IMG/VR virus record: IMGVR_UViG_2690316273_000004
Span: 1-5,534 of that record
Strand: one strand, 5' to 3'
DNA length: 5,534 nt
Source: a virus
Taxonomy: Duplodnaviria > Heunggongvirae > Uroviricota > Caudoviricetes
Positions 27 through 5,534 of the stretch are shown here, one piece after another (the stretch's first letter is position 1; the number at the start of each line of letters is the position of its first letter). The notes under the pieces are model-generated. The model was given only the letters and a program-made list of their open reading frames with translations, was not told where the DNA came from and did not search any database. The translations under genes and the position numbers were made by a program.

Positions 27-728
27 TTAATGATTTTGATAAAAATCATTAGGGGATTCATCAGTGTTTAGCATGCTCGCGATACGGTATTCAGGCGGAG
101 TACCTTCATCATCGTCTTTTTGCTGATCGCGCATTTCCTGCACCAGGCGAATACACGTATCCCTGGCGTTCTCCAGCATAAGGAGATGAGAAAGAGACTT
201 TTCAAGAAGAGTGGTTTCCAGAACATCGGCCCCGGACCGACGCAACATAGCGCGCGCGGCCTTCCGCGCTTCAACGTTATCTATCAGGTAATCGCCAGCT
301 TCGAATTCAAAGCGTTCACCATCATCATCCAGGGTGTCGCGTTCCAGGCGATCACGTAAGGTCCGGTGGGCGCGGGTGATCACGTCATGATCATCTGAAC
401 GATCATTTATGCGCTTATTTTGGCGCTTCGCATTCTCGACTGCGGCACTGACAACGGCATTAACTCTCTGTTTTTCCGCTATTTCAGCCGCAATATGATC
501 ACCTGCATGTTGATCATTAGAGTGATCAATGATCATGCTTTTTAGTGGCTTCCTGACTGGCTTATTTGGCTTGCGGCTGTCCGCAGTCCTAGTGTCTTCT
601 TTGAAGGCACGGAGATAACGACGTGCGGTATTAGGGTTAAGATTAAACTCGGCGGCATACTGTGCGATGGTGTAACCACCATCTCGCGCCAGGCGAGCAA
701 AATTCTTCTTGTGATCGTCCCAGGTCAC
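27..728 (-). CDS. Phage-associated DNA-binding protein with N-terminal helix-turn-helix (233 aa); function unresolved, possibly a regulator or small-terminase-like protein
   Basis: Long minus-strand ORF from the track. GTG start at 728 preceded by AAAGGAAG about 5 nt upstream (seen in sequence). N-terminus [22 protein letters not shown] has an HTH-like pattern, followed by a charged, acidic and Arg-rich region. Product is a guess. Confidence 0.55.
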
Positions 729-785
729 TTATGCTTCCTTTCGTAAAAACTCTTTTTGACGCGAGGGTAACGAAAGTCACATGTC

Positions 786-803
786 AAAAGGCCCGGAACG
801 GGC
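786..803 (-). terminator. Candidate weak intrinsic terminator: 5-bp GC stem (GCCCG/CGGGC, loop of 3) followed on the minus transcript by CUUUUG
   Basis: Hairpin gcccggaacgggc at 791-803 lies 11 nt beyond the stop of the 814-1266 gene. Stem is short and the U-run is only 4 nt. Confidence 0.2.
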
Positions 804-813
804 AAGCAATCAA

Positions 814-1266
814 TCAGATACGTGCGGATGTGGCATTACCGTAATGACGGTGCTGACGGGCCACCTTATTGAAAAGTTGACGCGCCATTACCCAAGGCTG
901 GTGCTCCCGGCGTTCCTTTTCGTCCTGCGTCATATAGAGTTCGTTCTGGAGTTTTTCATCAAACCGGCGCGGCGCGCGGCTGCGGCGAAAGAATTCAGGA
1001 TTCAAAGAGTGGATCTGAAATCTACGTGGGCGTGTACTGTCATCAATCAAAACAGACGAATACTTAGACACAGCGATAGCCTTTAAGCGCAGATAAACGT
1101 CGCGCTTATCGACATCCAGATGCGGGTATTCCTTTTCAAGGATTGCTGCGAGTTCTTTCGCTGATAGAAGAGACTTAGTGCGGATCATGTAATCCGCAAT
1201 CTCATACGATGTTATTCGTGAGTGATTTATTTCCATGAAGTGGCGTCCCTGCCAGTTAAGTAACAT
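814..1266 (-). CDS. Hypothetical phage protein (150 aa), Arg-rich, no Cys
   Basis: Minus-strand ORF from the track. ATG at 1266 preceded by AGGTGA 4 nt upstream. An internal ATG 10 codons in (MEINHS) is an alternative start. No recognisable motif. Confidence 0.5.
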   Translation of the reverse strand: MLLNWQGRHFMEINHSRITSYEIADYMIRTKSLLSAKELAAILEKEYPHLDVDKRDVYLRLKAIAVSKYSSVLIDDSTRPRRFQIHSLNPEFFRRSRAPRRFDEKLQNELYMTQDEKERREHQPWVMARQLFNKVARQHRHYGNATSARI

Positions 1267-1311
1267 CCTGTCACCTACTGATTAGCCCATGTCAACTAAT
1301 CAACGTGGAAT

Positions 1312-1339
1312 ATAATACCCTCTATTAAAGAAATAGCAA
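1312..1339 (-). promoter_or_regulatory. Candidate sigma70 promoter for the 814-1266 gene: -35 TTGCTA (1334-1339), 16-bp spacer, -10 TATTAT (1312-1317), read on the minus strand
   Basis: Hexamers read directly from the reverse complement of the 1267-1354 intergenic region. Purely a sequence-pattern call. Confidence 0.2.
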
Positions 1340-1354
1340 TACATTAGAGCAATT

Positions 1355-2398
1355 TTATCTAACGCTCGACGAGTGACTTGTGATAGCGCCGACTCCAAGC
1401 GCGTAATCAAAGAACAATCGTTGATGCATCGCCAGCCTACCGTGCGTCTTCTCCCAATTATCGCGGTCACGCTCAATATCACGCTGGCATGACTGGCACA
1501 GAGGAATTGCGTAAATGTCATGCGCGCATAATCGACTATGACGAACGATATAAGGCGTAATGTGAGCGCCAGCTCCCGCCGCTCCACACCCACAGCATGG
1601 ACGGGAAGCAACAAAGTCCATGTACTCAGGTAATTTTAGCGATTGCAGTTTTGGTATTTTGAAATGCGCCATGCCAGGGTCGGAGTCAACATCCACAGAG
1701 CATACTTTTGCACGCATCGGCGCGGCGCGTTCTTCCATCATCTGAACATATGCTGTAGCGCGATCGTCATACGGGCGAATATCCGCCTCTTTCAGAGGTC
1801 CGCTATCCTGCGTTGCGGCTTTCATCTTATTTATTGATATACGGCAAACTTCTTCCGGCATCAGGTGCATCATGTTGCGCATGAAAGCCCACCAGCACAG
1901 TTCCTGAATACTTAAATCATGGCCATCTGAAAGCCCCATTTCCTGACGGGCGACATCCAGTATCCAGTTAACGCGATTATTATGCAGCGTTTCTTTCAGC
2001 TCATTAAAACCACGCATCCGGTAATGGTTATCGTGATGCCAGCACAACAACACCGCGCTATTGTCTCGTTCTGCGTGGACAATATGGTTGTCACACCAGC
2101 TACGATCTGCGGCCTGGCATTGCCCCTCTTTCCTGCGCAACCACGCCACCAGCGAGTCAATTCCACCAATACGGCGAAACAGTTCATCGCTGTTAAAAAA
2201 CGGCTGCAACGCCTCATTTGTTGCCATAGTTTGCTCGGAAACAACGAGGCCGTCGTCCATGTGCTCGATTAACTCACGCGGCACCGGCTCCATAATAAAT
2301 TTACGGCCAGCCTCCACCAGCTTTCTGACTTCCTGATCCACTTTGAATGTGGCGACGCCAAGCTCTTTTTGTACAAAGGGAGTAATTACGGCTTTCAC
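1355..2398 (-). CDS. DUF968/YdfU-like prophage protein (347 aa) with two Cys/His clusters, putative zinc-binding HNH-like domains
   Basis: Minus-strand ORF from the track. GTG start at 2398 with GAAAGG Shine-Dalgarno. Cys/His clusters [17 protein letters not shown]...LCWHHDNH and CCGCG...H...LCAHD...CQSC. Size and motif pattern match my recollection of E. coli Qin-prophage YdfU (DUF968); not verified by search. Confidence 0.6.
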
Positions 2399-2425
2399 AT
2401 CACACCTTTCATCACTGATTGGGCT

Positions 2426-2626
2426 TTATCTGCTGCCCGGCATTCTCTGTTTAAGCACAACCATTTCCTGACGGCATAACACAGCAATAGCGGTCCTGGC
2501 ACCAATTTGCTTACCAACCAGGTATTGCTTTACCTCGCGGCGACTCACGCCATCAAGAAGCATCTTTAACGCTTCACGGGACAATTTGTTGTATTTACAT
2601 GCCATTAATCTACTCCGCGGAACCAT
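2426..2626 (-). CDS. Small hypothetical protein (66 aa from ATG 2626, or 59 aa from ATG 2605), translationally coupled to the doc 3' end
   Basis: Minus-strand ORF from the track. Its start overlaps the doc stop (2610-2612) by 17 nt, or lies 4 nt downstream of it if ATG 2605 is used. Its stop (2426-2428) is in frame with and 27 nt upstream of the DUF968 start. Basic, possibly DNA-binding; no family recognised. Confidence 0.4.
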
Positions 2627-2990
2627 ACAATCTACGTAACGTGTCGGCGACAGAAGATACAGATATCTCTCCGGTCGCAGCCCCTACGGTAAGGTCTGCC
2701 AGTTCAGGTGAATCAAATACCTGCACCCCGTTACGGCGTAGAAATAACAGCGCACTGTTTAGCGCGGTACGCTTATTGGCATCATTGAATATATGCCCTC
2801 TCGCTGTAGCCACCAGGTAGGTGGCGGAGACTTCGAAAAGGTCGGTGATCTCTTCGTAGGCAACTCTGGCCTGAACTCTCCCGATAATGGCCTCTGCCCT
2901 ACCCGGATCTGACATTCCCGGCAGGCCGCCGTAGCGGTTTATATTCGCATCATGAAGCGCAATAAGTTCTTCCGGTGATATATGCCTCAT
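2610..2990 (-). CDS. doc: Doc toxin (death on curing), Fic/Doc-family kinase, 126 aa
   Basis: Translation [16 protein letters not shown]...[30 protein letters not shown]...LRRLYGSAE matches phage P1 Doc as I recall it. Fic motif HIFNDANKR is intact at 2769-2795. ATG at 2988-2990 overlaps the phd stop by 1 nt. Confidence 0.93.
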
Positions 2991-3211
2991 TATCGGTTAA
3001 CCAGTTCCTTGTTGGTGGAGTCCAGGGTGTCAAACAGGGATGCAAATTCAGCATCCAGCGCCGCTTTTTTGTAGGCTTCGAAAGTAGCCTTGCTGACAAT
3101 TACTGCTGGCTCACGGCCTCTGCGGGTGATTTCAACCTCTTCCCCGGCTTCAACATTGTTGAGCACTTCAGAAAGGTTGCCACGCGCGGTACGGAAGTTA
3201 ATGGATTGCAT
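2990..3211 (-). CDS. phd: Phd antitoxin (prevent host death), 73 aa
   Basis: Translation from ATG 3211, [73 protein letters not shown], matches P1 Phd as I recall it. The track ORF begins 2 codons earlier at a GTG (3217); ATG 3211 with GAGGTG upstream is preferred. Confidence 0.93.
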
Positions 3212-3250
3212 AAACACCTCGTGTACTCGTTATGTGTACACAATTATAAA
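3212..3250 (-). promoter_or_regulatory. phd-doc promoter/operator: -10 TATAAT (3243-3248, minus strand) followed by perfect 10-bp palindrome TGTGTACACA (3233-3242), a second GTGTAC half-site (3221-3226) and GAGGTG Shine-Dalgarno
   Basis: Palindromes and -10 read directly from the sequence. Two palindromic Phd/Doc-binding operator sites overlapping the promoter is the known architecture of P1 phd-doc autoregulation. No good -35 was found. Confidence 0.5.
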
Positions 3251-3321
3251 CTTCACAAGCATAAAGCACCAGCACTTTGCAGCTTAAATCACCGGACAAT
3301 CGTCAAACTCCCCACTTCGGG

Positions 3322-3340
3322 CATCATTGATGAAATGATG
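3322..3340. repeat. Perfect 7-bp inverted repeat catcatt-gatga-aatgatg
   Basis: Seen directly. Lies 16 nt beyond the stop of the 3356-3820 gene and about 75 nt upstream of the phd -10. AT-rich stem and no U-run, so not a canonical terminator; possible protein-binding site. Confidence 0.4.
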
Positions 3341-3355
3341 TGGTCACACCAAACT

Positions 3356-3820
3356 TTAATCTTCAAGGTCTGCTTCTGATACCACTGTATAACCCAGAAA
3401 TATTTTAATCTCATCCCACAATCCCATGATCTTGCCTTCATACTCTGATGGTTCTCTTACAATTACTGAATCTGGGGGAGAGTGAGCCTCTAATTCGGTT
3501 ATGATCTCATGGCAAAGATTATGTTTGTAATATTGTTTTAGTTGCTCTCGAATAGGTTTTGGCGCACTTTCAATAGTTTCTTTTGCGGCATTTAGTGAAA
3601 GAATTATATTACTTGCGTCATTAACATCCCAGTCTGATCCAGCTTTTCCTGTTGCTATTTTATTTGCCCTATCAGCAAAGTTTATCAATGCTTCACTATA
3701 AAATTTTTCCTTATCGAATAATCCAAGCTTTTTACTTGTGCGCAAACTAATAAAAGCAGCTATTGCTGACCCAAATGCCGCAATAGCTGATGCCCAATCG
3801 GGATTGATATGAAGAAACAT
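3356..3820 (-). CDS. Hypothetical membrane-anchored protein (154 aa), AT-rich gene
   Basis: Minus-strand ORF from the track. N-terminal hydrophobic segment WASAIAAFGSAIAAFISL followed by a basic stretch, consistent with a signal-anchor, then a hydrophilic domain. Clearly AT-rich, so likely horizontally acquired. Confidence 0.55.
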   Translation of the reverse strand: MFLHINPDWASAIAAFGSAIAAFISLRTSKKLGLFDKEKFYSEALINFADRANKIATGKAGSDWDVNDASNIILSLNAAKETIESAPKPIREQLKQYYKHNLCHEIITELEAHSPPDSVIVREPSEYEGKIMGLWDEIKIFLGYTVVSEADLED

Positions 3821-3858
3821 GCTATCTCTACCTAATGCCAGATCTTTAACCTAGAAAT

Positions 3859-3886
3859 ATTGTATCAGTAGTTATGGCTTTGCCAC
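3859..3886 (-). promoter_or_regulatory. Candidate promoter for the 3356-3820 gene: -35 GTGGCA (3881-3886), 16-bp spacer, -10 TACAAT (3859-3864), read on the minus strand
   Basis: Hexamers read from the reverse complement of the 84-nt intergenic region 3821-3904. The -35 is weak. Confidence 0.2.
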
Positions 3887-3904
3887 CAGTAATGCGATTT
3901 TTTC

Positions 3905-4564
3905 CTAGTTGTCATTGCCCCCTACCAACGACAATAAAGCCCTGGCCATCTTATGAACCAACAGTGCATCAATAATGCCAAGCGTATGCCCCGGCTTAAT
4001 GTTTAATGCTGCCTCAAGATGCCCCCTTTCCAGACCGCTTTTCTCGGCTTGTTTATGATGATATGGCGTAATAACGTCGCCCAAAACACGGCTAATTCTT
4101 TCTCGTAATTGCTGGGTGCCAGCACACTTGATCGCTGTATCGTGGAGACGGTTAACCAGTTCGCGATAAACATGCGGCTTAATGCGGATACGTTCACCGG
4201 TGACGCCCTTTCCTGGCGCTGGCACCGAACTATCCGGAATATCCGGATAGTTGCCAGCCTCGTAAGCTACCCGCAGCCAGTGCATGAATGTTTCAGTGGA
4301 CACACAACCACAGTCCACATCGATTTTTCCGCGTTGCTGTTCCAGCCACTGCTCAAAATTCAATCTACACGTATTACTTTCATGTTGCTCTTTTTGTCTC
4401 AAGGCCAGCACCTGTTGGGCCAGTTCCAGAACGATACCGGGTGACGCTAACCTCTCAAATTCCAATAAATAGTTTGCGTCAGGATGACAAGTAGCCTCGC
4501 CTGCAAAAAATACCAATTGCTGTAAGTATGCTGTCGTTAGAGTAGTCATTTCTTTTTGCGCCAT
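3905..4564 (-). CDS. Hypothetical soluble protein (219 aa) containing several Cys/His residues, unknown function
   Basis: Minus-strand ORF from the track, about 50% GC. ATG 4564 lies inside the 3' end of the upstream membrane-protein gene (19-nt overlap). Contains CHPD, TCRLN and DCGC. No Walker A or other catalytic motif recognised. Confidence 0.6.
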   Translation of the reverse strand: MAQKEMTTLTTAYLQQLVFFAGEATCHPDANYLLEFERLASPGIVLELAQQVLALRQKEQHESNTCRLNFEQWLEQQRGKIDVDCGCVSTETFMHWLRVAYEAGNYPDIPDSSVPAPGKGVTGERIRIKPHVYRELVNRLHDTAIKCAGTQQLRERISRVLGDVITPYHHKQAEKSGLERGHLEAALNIKPGHTLGIIDALLVHKMARALLSLVGGNDN

Positions 4565-4920
4565 TTCTTTTCACATTCCTTAGTCCATTTTTCAATGTTC
4601 ATTTTGGCAATATCAGTCATTCCATCACCTAAGAAATACTTTTTCCGGTATGTCTTGCACTTAAACCACACTACAACAGCCACCAGCCAGAAAATAAAAG
4701 GCCATACAGCAATACCAACGACAGCCGCGATAAAGCCCAATAGCCATAAATGAAGCTCTCCAACTTCTGTTTCCGGCAATATTCTTAAAGAATTAAACAG
4801 CAGGCTGAACGAATGGTCGTATGCATTGGCAGTATAAGACATGCAATCCATATAATTAAAGTCATAGCCTGCGGCTGCCGCCCATAATGGGCGGTCAAGA
4901 AAATGTTTTAGTGTCATCAT
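4546..4920 (-). CDS. Hypothetical membrane protein (124 aa): N-terminal soluble region, about 30-residue hydrophobic core, polybasic C-terminal tail
   Basis: Minus-strand ORF from the track. Hydrophobic core LHLWLLGFIAAVVGIAVWPFIFWLVAVVVWF (one long helix or a hairpin). C-terminus ends KKWRKKK. Start is 6 nt after the upstream gene stop; no strong Shine-Dalgarno, so probably coupled. Confidence 0.55.
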   Translation of the reverse strand: MMTLKHFLDRPLWAAAAGYDFNYMDCMSYTANAYDHSFSLLFNSLRILPETEVGELHLWLLGFIAAVVGIAVWPFIFWLVAVVVWFKCKTYRKKYFLGDGMTDIAKMNIEKWTKECEKKWRKKK

Positions 4921-4926
4921 ATAAAT

Positions 4927-5220
4927 TTAAGGTTCAGACCAGTTATCTTCAATAGCAATGCTTAATCTTTGTAGCCATTCTGCTAATTTCAGCATTGCTT
5001 CTCTTTCGCTTAAACCACGAGGAAAATCATCAAGCGAAATTGTTGGCTTGAATCCACCGTAATTATCCATTTCAACTGTCAGATTTTGTTCCAGCAAGGT
5101 ATTTCTTACGCGGCTATTGTGCCGGAGCAAATATACTGAGCGTGATTTATTGGTTTTGTGGTCTAGCTTATATTCGGTAAGTATCATCTGGCTTTTGCCA
5201 TGACTATTACCTCTCCACAT
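4927..5220 (-). CDS. Hypothetical small soluble protein (97 aa), AT-rich gene
   Basis: The track ORF runs 4927-5316 from a TTG. I prefer ATG 5220 (MWRGNSHGKSQMILTEYK...) because it is preceded by GAGGT at 5-nt spacing and the N-terminal extension overlaps a better small ORF in another frame. Confidence 0.5.
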   Translation of the reverse strand: MWRGNSHGKSQMILTEYKLDHKTNKSRSVYLLRHNSRVRNTLLEQNLTVEMDNYGGFKPTISLDDFPRGLSEREAMLKLAEWLQRLSIAIEDNWSEP

Positions 5221-5227
5221 ACTTACC

Positions 5228-5350
5228 TCACTTAATAAAACAACTCCATGCGTAGTTGATGATTTTTTCCCACGCAATATAAATCTGCACTCCGGCAGTA
5301 AAACCAAAGCCAACAATTGCTGAAAAAATCAAAACATTTACTTTTGACAT
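5228..5350 (-). CDS. Candidate small hydrophobic peptide (40 aa, single predicted transmembrane helix); not in the ORF track
   Basis: Hand-translated from the reverse complement: MSKVNVLIFSAIVGFGFTAGVQIYIAWEKIINYAWSCFIK. ATG at 5348-5350, TGA at 5228-5230. Its stop overlaps the GAGGT Shine-Dalgarno of the next gene. Short ORFs are error-prone calls. Confidence 0.3.
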   Translation of the reverse strand: MSKVNVLIFSAIVGFGFTAGVQIYIAWEKIINYAWSCFIK

Positions 5351-5534
5351 TATAAATTTTCTCTCGGTGTCGTAGGTGATAGCACCATAATTGATAATTT
5401 AGTGAGTTAGCAGTTCCATTTTTTTGATGATTTCCGCATGAGCATCATCGTTATCAACACTTAGCTCTGAGAGATCCCCTCATAATTTCCCCAAAACGTA
5501 ACCATGTGTGAATAGATTTTGAGTAAGCAGGGTT

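Follow-up and report, generated by a model that had tools for sequence, protein, structure and literature searches.

The small basic gene directly after doc in a P1-like element is phage P1 pdcA, most often carried as the third gene of a mobile phd-doc cassette

A small extra cistron accompanies the type II antitoxin-toxin pair in a number of three-gene toxin-antitoxin operons, such as pasABC of pTF-FC2, in which the third gene lies after the toxin gene, the HigBA system with a SecB-like chaperone (TAC), paaR-paaA-parE and omega-epsilon-zeta. The gene order of pasABC, i.e. antitoxin, toxin and third gene, is also that of phd-doc-pdcA, the genes considered in the current study, whereas pdcA differs from the third genes of those operons in showing no sequence or fold similarity to them and in not being obligately linked to its pair. 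The phd-doc promoter, Pphd, is repressed by Phd-Doc. Phd-Doc has been described and studied as a two-protein system, and the autoregulation of type II toxin-antitoxin systems has been summarised (PMC5086665). The original phd-doc record, M95666, holds no feature at the open reading frame (ORF) behind doc.

This small ORF is an already annotated gene of phage P1, pdcA, and does not represent a new gene. In the P1 record AF234172, this very ORF bears the name pdcA ('unknown protein function', 201 nt) and the DUF968 gene the name pdcB, the same ORF is named fdc in the P7 GenBank record, and the NCBI name for the 59-aa form of its product is 'PdcA protein'; the ORF is thus not undescribed. In a CRISPRi essentiality screen of P1, pdcA was one of three genes that could not be targeted for want of PAM sites (PMC10695390). 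The table of that paper lists the gene as 'unknown function, not tested' and as non-essential for lytic growth, the latter by citation of another paper, Gonzales 2022, in the main text of which pdc is not mentioned.

The window, that is, the whole stretch of DNA analysed here (5,534 nucleotides), derives from a P1-like element in which pdcA lies directly after doc and before pdcB. Positions 1300-3300 are 97-99% identical at the nucleotide level to phages P1, P7, RCS47 and relatives, while positions 62-5467 are collinear with P1-like plasmids of 93-99 kb. The relevant genes and signals are listed below, with P1 annotations transferred from AF234172 by the conversion window = locus - 1701.

3243-3271, minus strand: promoter Pphd of the phd-doc operon, mapped from the annotation of P1 record AF234172
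3266-3271, minus strand: -35 element of Pphd, as annotated in P1 AF234172
3243-3248, minus strand: -10 element of Pphd, TATAAT, from the sequence and the AF234172 mapping
2990-3211, minus strand: phd, antitoxin, 73 aa (Pfam PhdYeFM_antitox, E=3e-13; P1 annotation)
2610-2990, minus strand: doc, toxin of the Fic/Doc family, 126 aa (Pfam Fic, E=2e-9)
2613-2616, minus strand: GGAG, Shine-Dalgarno of pdcA, within the last two sense codons of doc and 7 nt upstream of ATG2605
2426-2626, minus strand: pdcA, 66-aa form, as in the P1 and P7 GenBank records (201 nt) and as first listed for the window
2426-2605, minus strand: pdcA, 59-aa form, favoured here (PHROG 3345, NCBI naming, pN/pS, AF2 model)
2399-2425, minus strand: pdcA-pdcB spacer, 27 nt, with an AAGGTG Shine-Dalgarno for the pdcB GTG (sequence)
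1355-2398, minus strand: pdcB, 347 aa, DUF968/HNH-endonuclease-like (Pfam DUF968, E=2e-50; PHROG 96 'HNH endonuclease', E=3e-128; P1 annotation)
814-1266, minus strand: lpa, followed by the 5' part of pacA

Phd and Doc of the window are 100% and 99% identical, respectively, to their P1 counterparts, and its PdcA shares 97% aa identity with P1 PdcA. P1 pdcA (AAQ14076, P1_gp106) and P7 fdc (AAQ07578) are the same gene as that of the window, at 93-98% aa identity, and occupy the same position between doc and pdcB with the same junction and spacer. The protein matches PHROG 3345, an unnamed family, over its full length (1-59 of 59; E=8.8e-43). The element of the window departs from P1 upstream of phd, where it does not carry humD, and in pacA, which is cut by IS10; its PdcA has Cys at residue 3 (MACKYNK; window 2597-2599), a position occupied by Arg in each of the 84 other full-length copies examined.

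At the phd-doc boundary, stop and ATG share 1 nt (TAATG), the doc TAG stop lies at 2612-2610, and pdcA may be read from an ATG at 2626, from which its frame overlaps doc by 17 nt, or from an internal ATG at 2605, 4 nt past the doc stop, to a TAA stop at 2428-2426. The initial annotation had described a basic protein of 59-66 aa encoded at 2426-2626, starting within or just after the doc stop and ending 27 nt before a DUF968-like gene, and this description is accurate in its coordinates, its two ATGs and its charge (pI 10.4-11), the distance of 27 nt being exact as pdcB, the fourth gene of this tightly packed array, starts with GTG at 2398. The spacer itself is conserved in 83/84 copies examined. 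No promoter or terminator of its own could be detected for the ORF: a consensus scan of the minus strand found no promoter-like or terminator-like site between doc, pdcA and pdcB, and neither kind of site is annotated there in AF234172, which has no promoter between Pphd and Plpa. Nor did the scan reveal anything terminator-like in the stretch from the pdcB stop to lpa (window 1266-1355). In P1, the C1 operator Olpa and the promoter Plpa are annotated directly after pdcB (AF234172), and some means would be needed to keep transcription that starts at Pphd from running on into lpa, the late-gene activator. Searches of the window against Rfam and for repeats returned nothing relevant and nothing meaningful, respectively.

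The P1 and P7 records use the upstream ATG, giving 66 aa; the present evidence favours a 59-aa product starting at ATG2605, and the 66-aa form given for the window is probably an over-extension. Several features of the sequence argue for the shorter form: ATG2605 is preceded at 7 nt by a GGAG (2616-2613) and nothing resembling a Shine-Dalgarno is found in the sequence upstream of ATG2626; the PHROG 3345 profile is 59 positions long and is matched from 1 to 59; and a homologue in Yersinia (see below) has no counterpart of the seven-residue extension. The junction GCGGAGTA(G/A)ATTAATGGCA is moreover conserved, being kept in 83 of 85 copies with a single base changed in the other two, and an IMG/VR locus that lacks doc (L078) keeps both this junction and ATG2605 while ATG2626 is absent, although in-frame GTG codons are present there. 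The longer form might still be used in doc-linked loci. Folding of the junction showed no RNA structure that would enforce coupling of pdcA to doc; the junction RNA is less structured than shuffled controls (z = +1.57), so that the ribosome-binding site of pdcA would be open and a strict dependence on doc translation unnecessary.

In order to assess coding, 85 full-length pdcA copies comprising 35 distinct alleles were gathered from phage records and IMG/VR loci, the latter being the best 80 matches and biased towards P1-like elements. No internal stop occurs among these 35 alleles and 85 copies, and the pN/pS of pdcA is 0.19, compared to 0.08 for phd, 0.07 for doc, 0.11 for pdcB and 0.05 for lpa, indicating that pdcA is less strongly constrained than the genes around it. 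When the same stretch is read in the other frames, pN/pS is 0.9-2.0 in four of five; the antisense frame that shares third positions with pdcA has a value of 0.22 but contains a stop. Comparison with a lineage at 92.6% nt identity revealed, over the first 50 codons of pdcA, seven synonymous and seven non-synonymous differences (pN/pS 0.28), while phd and doc gave 0.04 and 0.12 in the same comparison. Many truncated or frameshifted PdcA variants are present in the sequence databases. We conclude that pdcA genuinely codes for a protein and that purifying selection on it is moderate.

Homologues of PdcA were sought by two word-indexed searches (single sequence and profile) and by one exhaustive HMMER search of 1.84 billion representative proteins. 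The exhaustive search returned only 14 matches, namely PdcA variants, two repetitive artefacts and a 61-aa protein of Yersinia mollaretii; the profile search added one further Yersinia sequence, and the two long repetitive proteins (P0098 and P0100) were set aside as compositional matches. The only distant homologues found are thus Y. mollaretii HB976_01235 (P0102) and P0103, of 61-62 aa and pI 11, which are 44-45% identical to PdcA over a matched stretch of about 48 residues and share 16 invariant alignment columns with it across both lineages; the Yersinia homologue itself matches PHROG 3345 at E=9e-12. The homology search called for in the initial annotation therefore bears out conservation of the ORF, through PdcA copies and a Yersinia homologue at 44% identity. 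Unlike pdcA, the Yersinia genes are chromosomal and stand alone with their own 148-nt upstream region; they are flanked by a gene for a GNAT acetyltransferase and by umuDC, at the end of a prophage, and neither doc nor phd nor a DUF968 gene is nearby. A perfect 9-bp inverted repeat, ATTATTGTC-ATC-GACAATAAT, is located at about 5953-5973 of a Y. mollaretii-type locus (L005), some 30 nt upstream of the start of the PdcA homologue, and could be an operator. Downstream of the homologue gene, at a distance of 318 nt, is umuD, with a LexA box of its own at 6469-6484, and in P1 and D6 a UmuD homologue (humD) is found near phd-doc-pdcA. A link between PdcA and UmuD-like genes was considered and left as a coincidence or an unexplained lead, given that the gene order differs, that umuD has its own LexA box and that neither the window nor L078 contains humD.

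With a pI of 10.4-11 and a net charge between about +8.5 and +9.7, PdcA is strongly basic, and its AF2 model, built on a shallow alignment of 11 sequences in two lineages, consists of three helices at 2-17, 22-31 and 36-54 (pLDDT 86.5, pTM 0.70), the third of which is long and rather hydrophobic. No match to PdcA was found in Pfam (also at E<=10), NCBIfam or PADLOC, a sequence-profile search of the PDB gave as its best hit a designed repeat protein at E=0.012, and tblastn against GenBank phages revealed no distant homologue. Foldseek comparison of the model with the PDB and BFVD returned nothing at E<=0.1: the top PDB matches were to ribosomal protein eL36, helix-turn-helix (HTH) proteins appeared only at E>3.8, and the BFVD matches were all to uncharacterised proteins at E>=0.15. 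In being a three-helix bundle of similar size and strong positive charge, PdcA resembles small HTH domains such as those of Mu transposase I-beta, GerE/FixJ, KorA and the small-terminase N-domain, and HTH domains among the weak Foldseek matches reach query-normalised TM-scores of 0.4-0.63; these matches are nevertheless not significant (E>3.8, probability at most 0.35), nor is there any Pfam HTH match at E<=10. Since the modelled fold has three helices and the protein is so positively charged (pI about 11, charge about +9), a role in nucleic-acid binding may tentatively be proposed, a suggestion that comes from model and charge and is unsupported by homology.

The distribution of pdcA was followed through homology breakpoints, which are given in window coordinates. 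In phage D6, which has a different phage-plasmid backbone, the homologous segment runs from 3248 to 2424 and holds phd-doc-pdcA without pdcB, pdcA being a 65-aa variant that runs into the backbone terminator. An Escherichia coli chromosomal island beside a fimbrial usher/adhesin operon carries 3248 to 2451 at 92.6% identity, here phd-doc-pdcA followed by an insertion sequence (IS), again without pdcB. The left boundary common to both, 3248, is the upstream edge of the annotated Pphd -10. A longer P1 fragment, 3287 to 2121, is found on IncF plasmids beside the hsd type I restriction-modification locus, with an intact pdcA and the first ~92 codons of pdcB, which is cut by an IS. These data show that pdcA has been carried together with phd-doc, in a single mobile cassette of ~0.8 kb, to a number of unrelated backbones; we read pdcA as most often a part of this cassette, which comprises the Pphd -10, phd, doc and pdcA.

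The two sides of the doc-pdcA boundary also occur apart. On a D6-like plasmid (NZ_CP021720), phd-doc is present at 93% identity but homology ends at 2619 and pdcA is lacking, doc running directly into the backbone terminator that follows pdcA in D6. Conversely, L078 contains pdcA-pdcB-lpa without phd-doc, and its homology begins at 2625, shortly before the ribosome-binding site of pdcA. The breakpoints mark the interval 2619-2625, from doc to the pdcA ribosome-binding site, as a recurrent recombination joint, either side of which can exist alone.

Further observations concern the sequences that adjoin this joint. In the D6-type backbone (L004 3826-3860 and L096 2965-3000), pdcA (D6) and doc (NZ_CP021720) are each followed by one and the same TGA stop and terminator-like hairpin (AAGAAGCCCGC...GCGGGCTT), and the backbone therefore supplies the final gene of the inserted cassette with its last codons and stop. 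In L078 (IMGVR_UViG_2913167280_000003), the place of phd-doc is taken by a small ORF at 2772-2996, of 66 aa from an internal ATG or 74 aa as listed, whose similarity to RHH/NikA-like proteins lies below threshold and whose C-terminal end is ...AGAAE*; it is joined to pdcA by GCGGAGTAAATTAATG, the junction found after doc. In its layout, an RHH gene with a small basic protein encoded behind it recalls a toxin-antitoxin pair. The arrangement is a singleton, the L078 upstream region having no match in PLSDB. In another locus (L075 2693-2996, IMGVR_UViG_648276647_000006) and in plasmid matches H73 and H75, a 91-aa ORF (phrog_31462) is inserted between doc and pdcA, with the last 49 nt of doc duplicated, and the inserted ORF therefore ends with the C-terminal residues of Doc and keeps the coupling junction to pdcA.

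Among PLSDB records, which are not phylogenetically independent, 1240 contain this phd-doc, 1138 pdcA and 679 the distal pdcB, with phd-doc lacking pdcA in about 100. Of 5426 complete E. coli genomes, 1097 carry the doc-pdcA junction, nearly always on a plasmid. In the set biased towards P1-like elements, pdcA and pdcB are adjacent, with the conserved 27-nt spacer, in 84 of the 86 loci with a close pdcA copy. Consistent co-occurrence of pdcA is thus found neither with phd-doc (D6-like plasmid, L078, Yersinia and the PLSDB counts) nor with the DUF968 gene (D6, chromosomal island, Yersinia and the IncF truncation); linkage always to DUF968 and never to doc, the outcome which the initial annotation held would assign the ORF to the downstream module, is contradicted by D6, the chromosomal island and the IncF plasmids.

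On balance, we favour a joint reading in which the ORF encodes the real, basic, three-helix P1 PdcA, forms the third cistron of the cassette, is not an obligate toxin-antitoxin component and has a putative role in nucleic-acid binding. It is unlikely that PdcA is instead a functional third component of Phd-Doc, tuning Doc neutralisation or activity, Phd turnover by ClpXP or operator binding, for which PasC of pasABC would be a comparable case. Such a role would fit the translational juxtaposition of pdcA to doc, its co-mobilisation with phd-doc into D6 and the chromosomal island from one and the same left boundary, its retention there under constraint (pN/pS 0.28 at 92.6% nt identity), its presence in most PLSDB records with this phd-doc and its frequency in complete E. 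coli genomes, and repeated co-transfer is also what would be expected of a true functional partner. The D6-like plasmid, with its terminator directly after doc, L078, which keeps pdcA without phd-doc, and the Yersinia homologue, the only distant one and far from any Fic/Doc gene, all argue against it, as do the two-protein description of Phd-Doc, the blank at this ORF in M95666 and the lack of similarity to known third components (SecB-like chaperone, RHH omega, PaaR and PasC) by Pfam, PDB and Foldseek. Of the third component of the operon suggested in the initial annotation, what stands is a third cistron packed behind doc, and what falls is an obligate toxin-antitoxin component; for a modulator of the pair the argument is one of linkage alone, and both phd-doc without pdcA and pdcA without doc occur.

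The 84/86 adjacency of pdcA and pdcB across their conserved spacer, in a set biased towards P1-like elements, and the loss of phd-doc from L078 with retention of pdcA-pdcB-lpa from breakpoint 2625 would alternatively suit a PdcA that belongs to the downstream module as its first gene, e.g. as a DNA-targeting subunit of PdcB (DUF968/HNH), its place behind doc being fortuitous. This, too, we consider improbable, in that intact pdcA is found without pdcB in D6 and the chromosomal island and beside an IS-truncated pdcB on IncF plasmids, the Yersinia homologue has no DUF968 neighbour, and PLSDB records with pdcA outnumber those with distal pdcB (1138 versus only 679). The suggestion that the ORF is the first gene of the neighbouring module is in line with L078 but is at odds with the more frequent association of pdcA with phd-doc than with DUF968. 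Least credible, and indeed very improbable, is that the ORF is non-functional, being a frame left open by chance or a decaying relic that hitchhikes with the adjacent genes; the absence of a family annotation in any library, the reported non-essentiality for lytic growth (table of PMC10695390), the many truncated and frameshifted variants and a pN/pS above that of the neighbouring genes are compatible with it, but these are outweighed by the frame-specific synonymous excess and the lack of stops in 85 copies, the 44% protein identity and 16 invariant columns in Yersinia, the confident AF2 fold, and a Shine-Dalgarno and start codon conserved even where the upstream gene has been replaced.

Returning to the reading of PdcA as a non-obligate third cistron, the gene would be transcribed, to judge by the geometry of the array, from the Phd/Doc-autoregulated Pphd as part of the tightly packed phd-doc-pdcA-pdcB series, with its own GGAG ribosome-binding site inside the end of doc. 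The level of PdcA in a lysogen or plasmid-bearing cell would then track the state of the toxin-antitoxin operon, being low and autoregulated, and translation would initiate at its own Shine-Dalgarno, presumably aided by ribosomes terminating on doc. We infer this co-transcription and translation from geometry and selection only. PdcA itself would most likely be a small HTH-like accessory or regulatory factor binding nucleic acid. As phd-doc and pdcA each occur without the other, PdcA is not obligate in the toxin-antitoxin mechanism; the D6-like plasmid, L078 and the stand-alone Yersinia homologue argue against an obligate toxin-antitoxin role and an obligate partnership with PdcB alike.

The ends of the window, 1-61 and 5468-5534, resemble IS10-family termini, the left one an outside end and the right one an inside end. 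Intact P1-like plasmids without exception match no more than window 62-5467, and in one record that extends across the window ends the matched sequence encodes an ISVsa5 (IS10-like) transposase; the window may be a short-read contig bounded by IS copies. With its pacA interrupted at position 62, the P1-like element is probably packaging-defective. In place of P1 humD-lxr-hot, the minus strand of window 3356-5350 contains four or five ORFs (154, 219, 124, 129 and 40 aa), for which no match was found in Pfam, NCBIfam or PADLOC, and this arrangement recurs in a subset of P1-like plasmids, e.g. CP063718.

Phd-Doc is among the founding models for toxin-antitoxin biology, and the gene at its 3' end, pdcA, moves along with phd-doc among phage-plasmids, IncF plasmids and one chromosomal island. 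Should PdcA have no effect on the addiction module or on plasmid biology, it would be an ordinary small accessory gene on a constitutive promoter. If, on the other hand, it works in Phd-Doc, the P1 module that textbooks describe as a pair of genes would in fact comprise three, in a cassette carried by roughly one in five complete E. coli genomes, and any effect of PdcA on the addiction module or on plasmid biology would have a bearing on plasmid stability in clinical E. coli.
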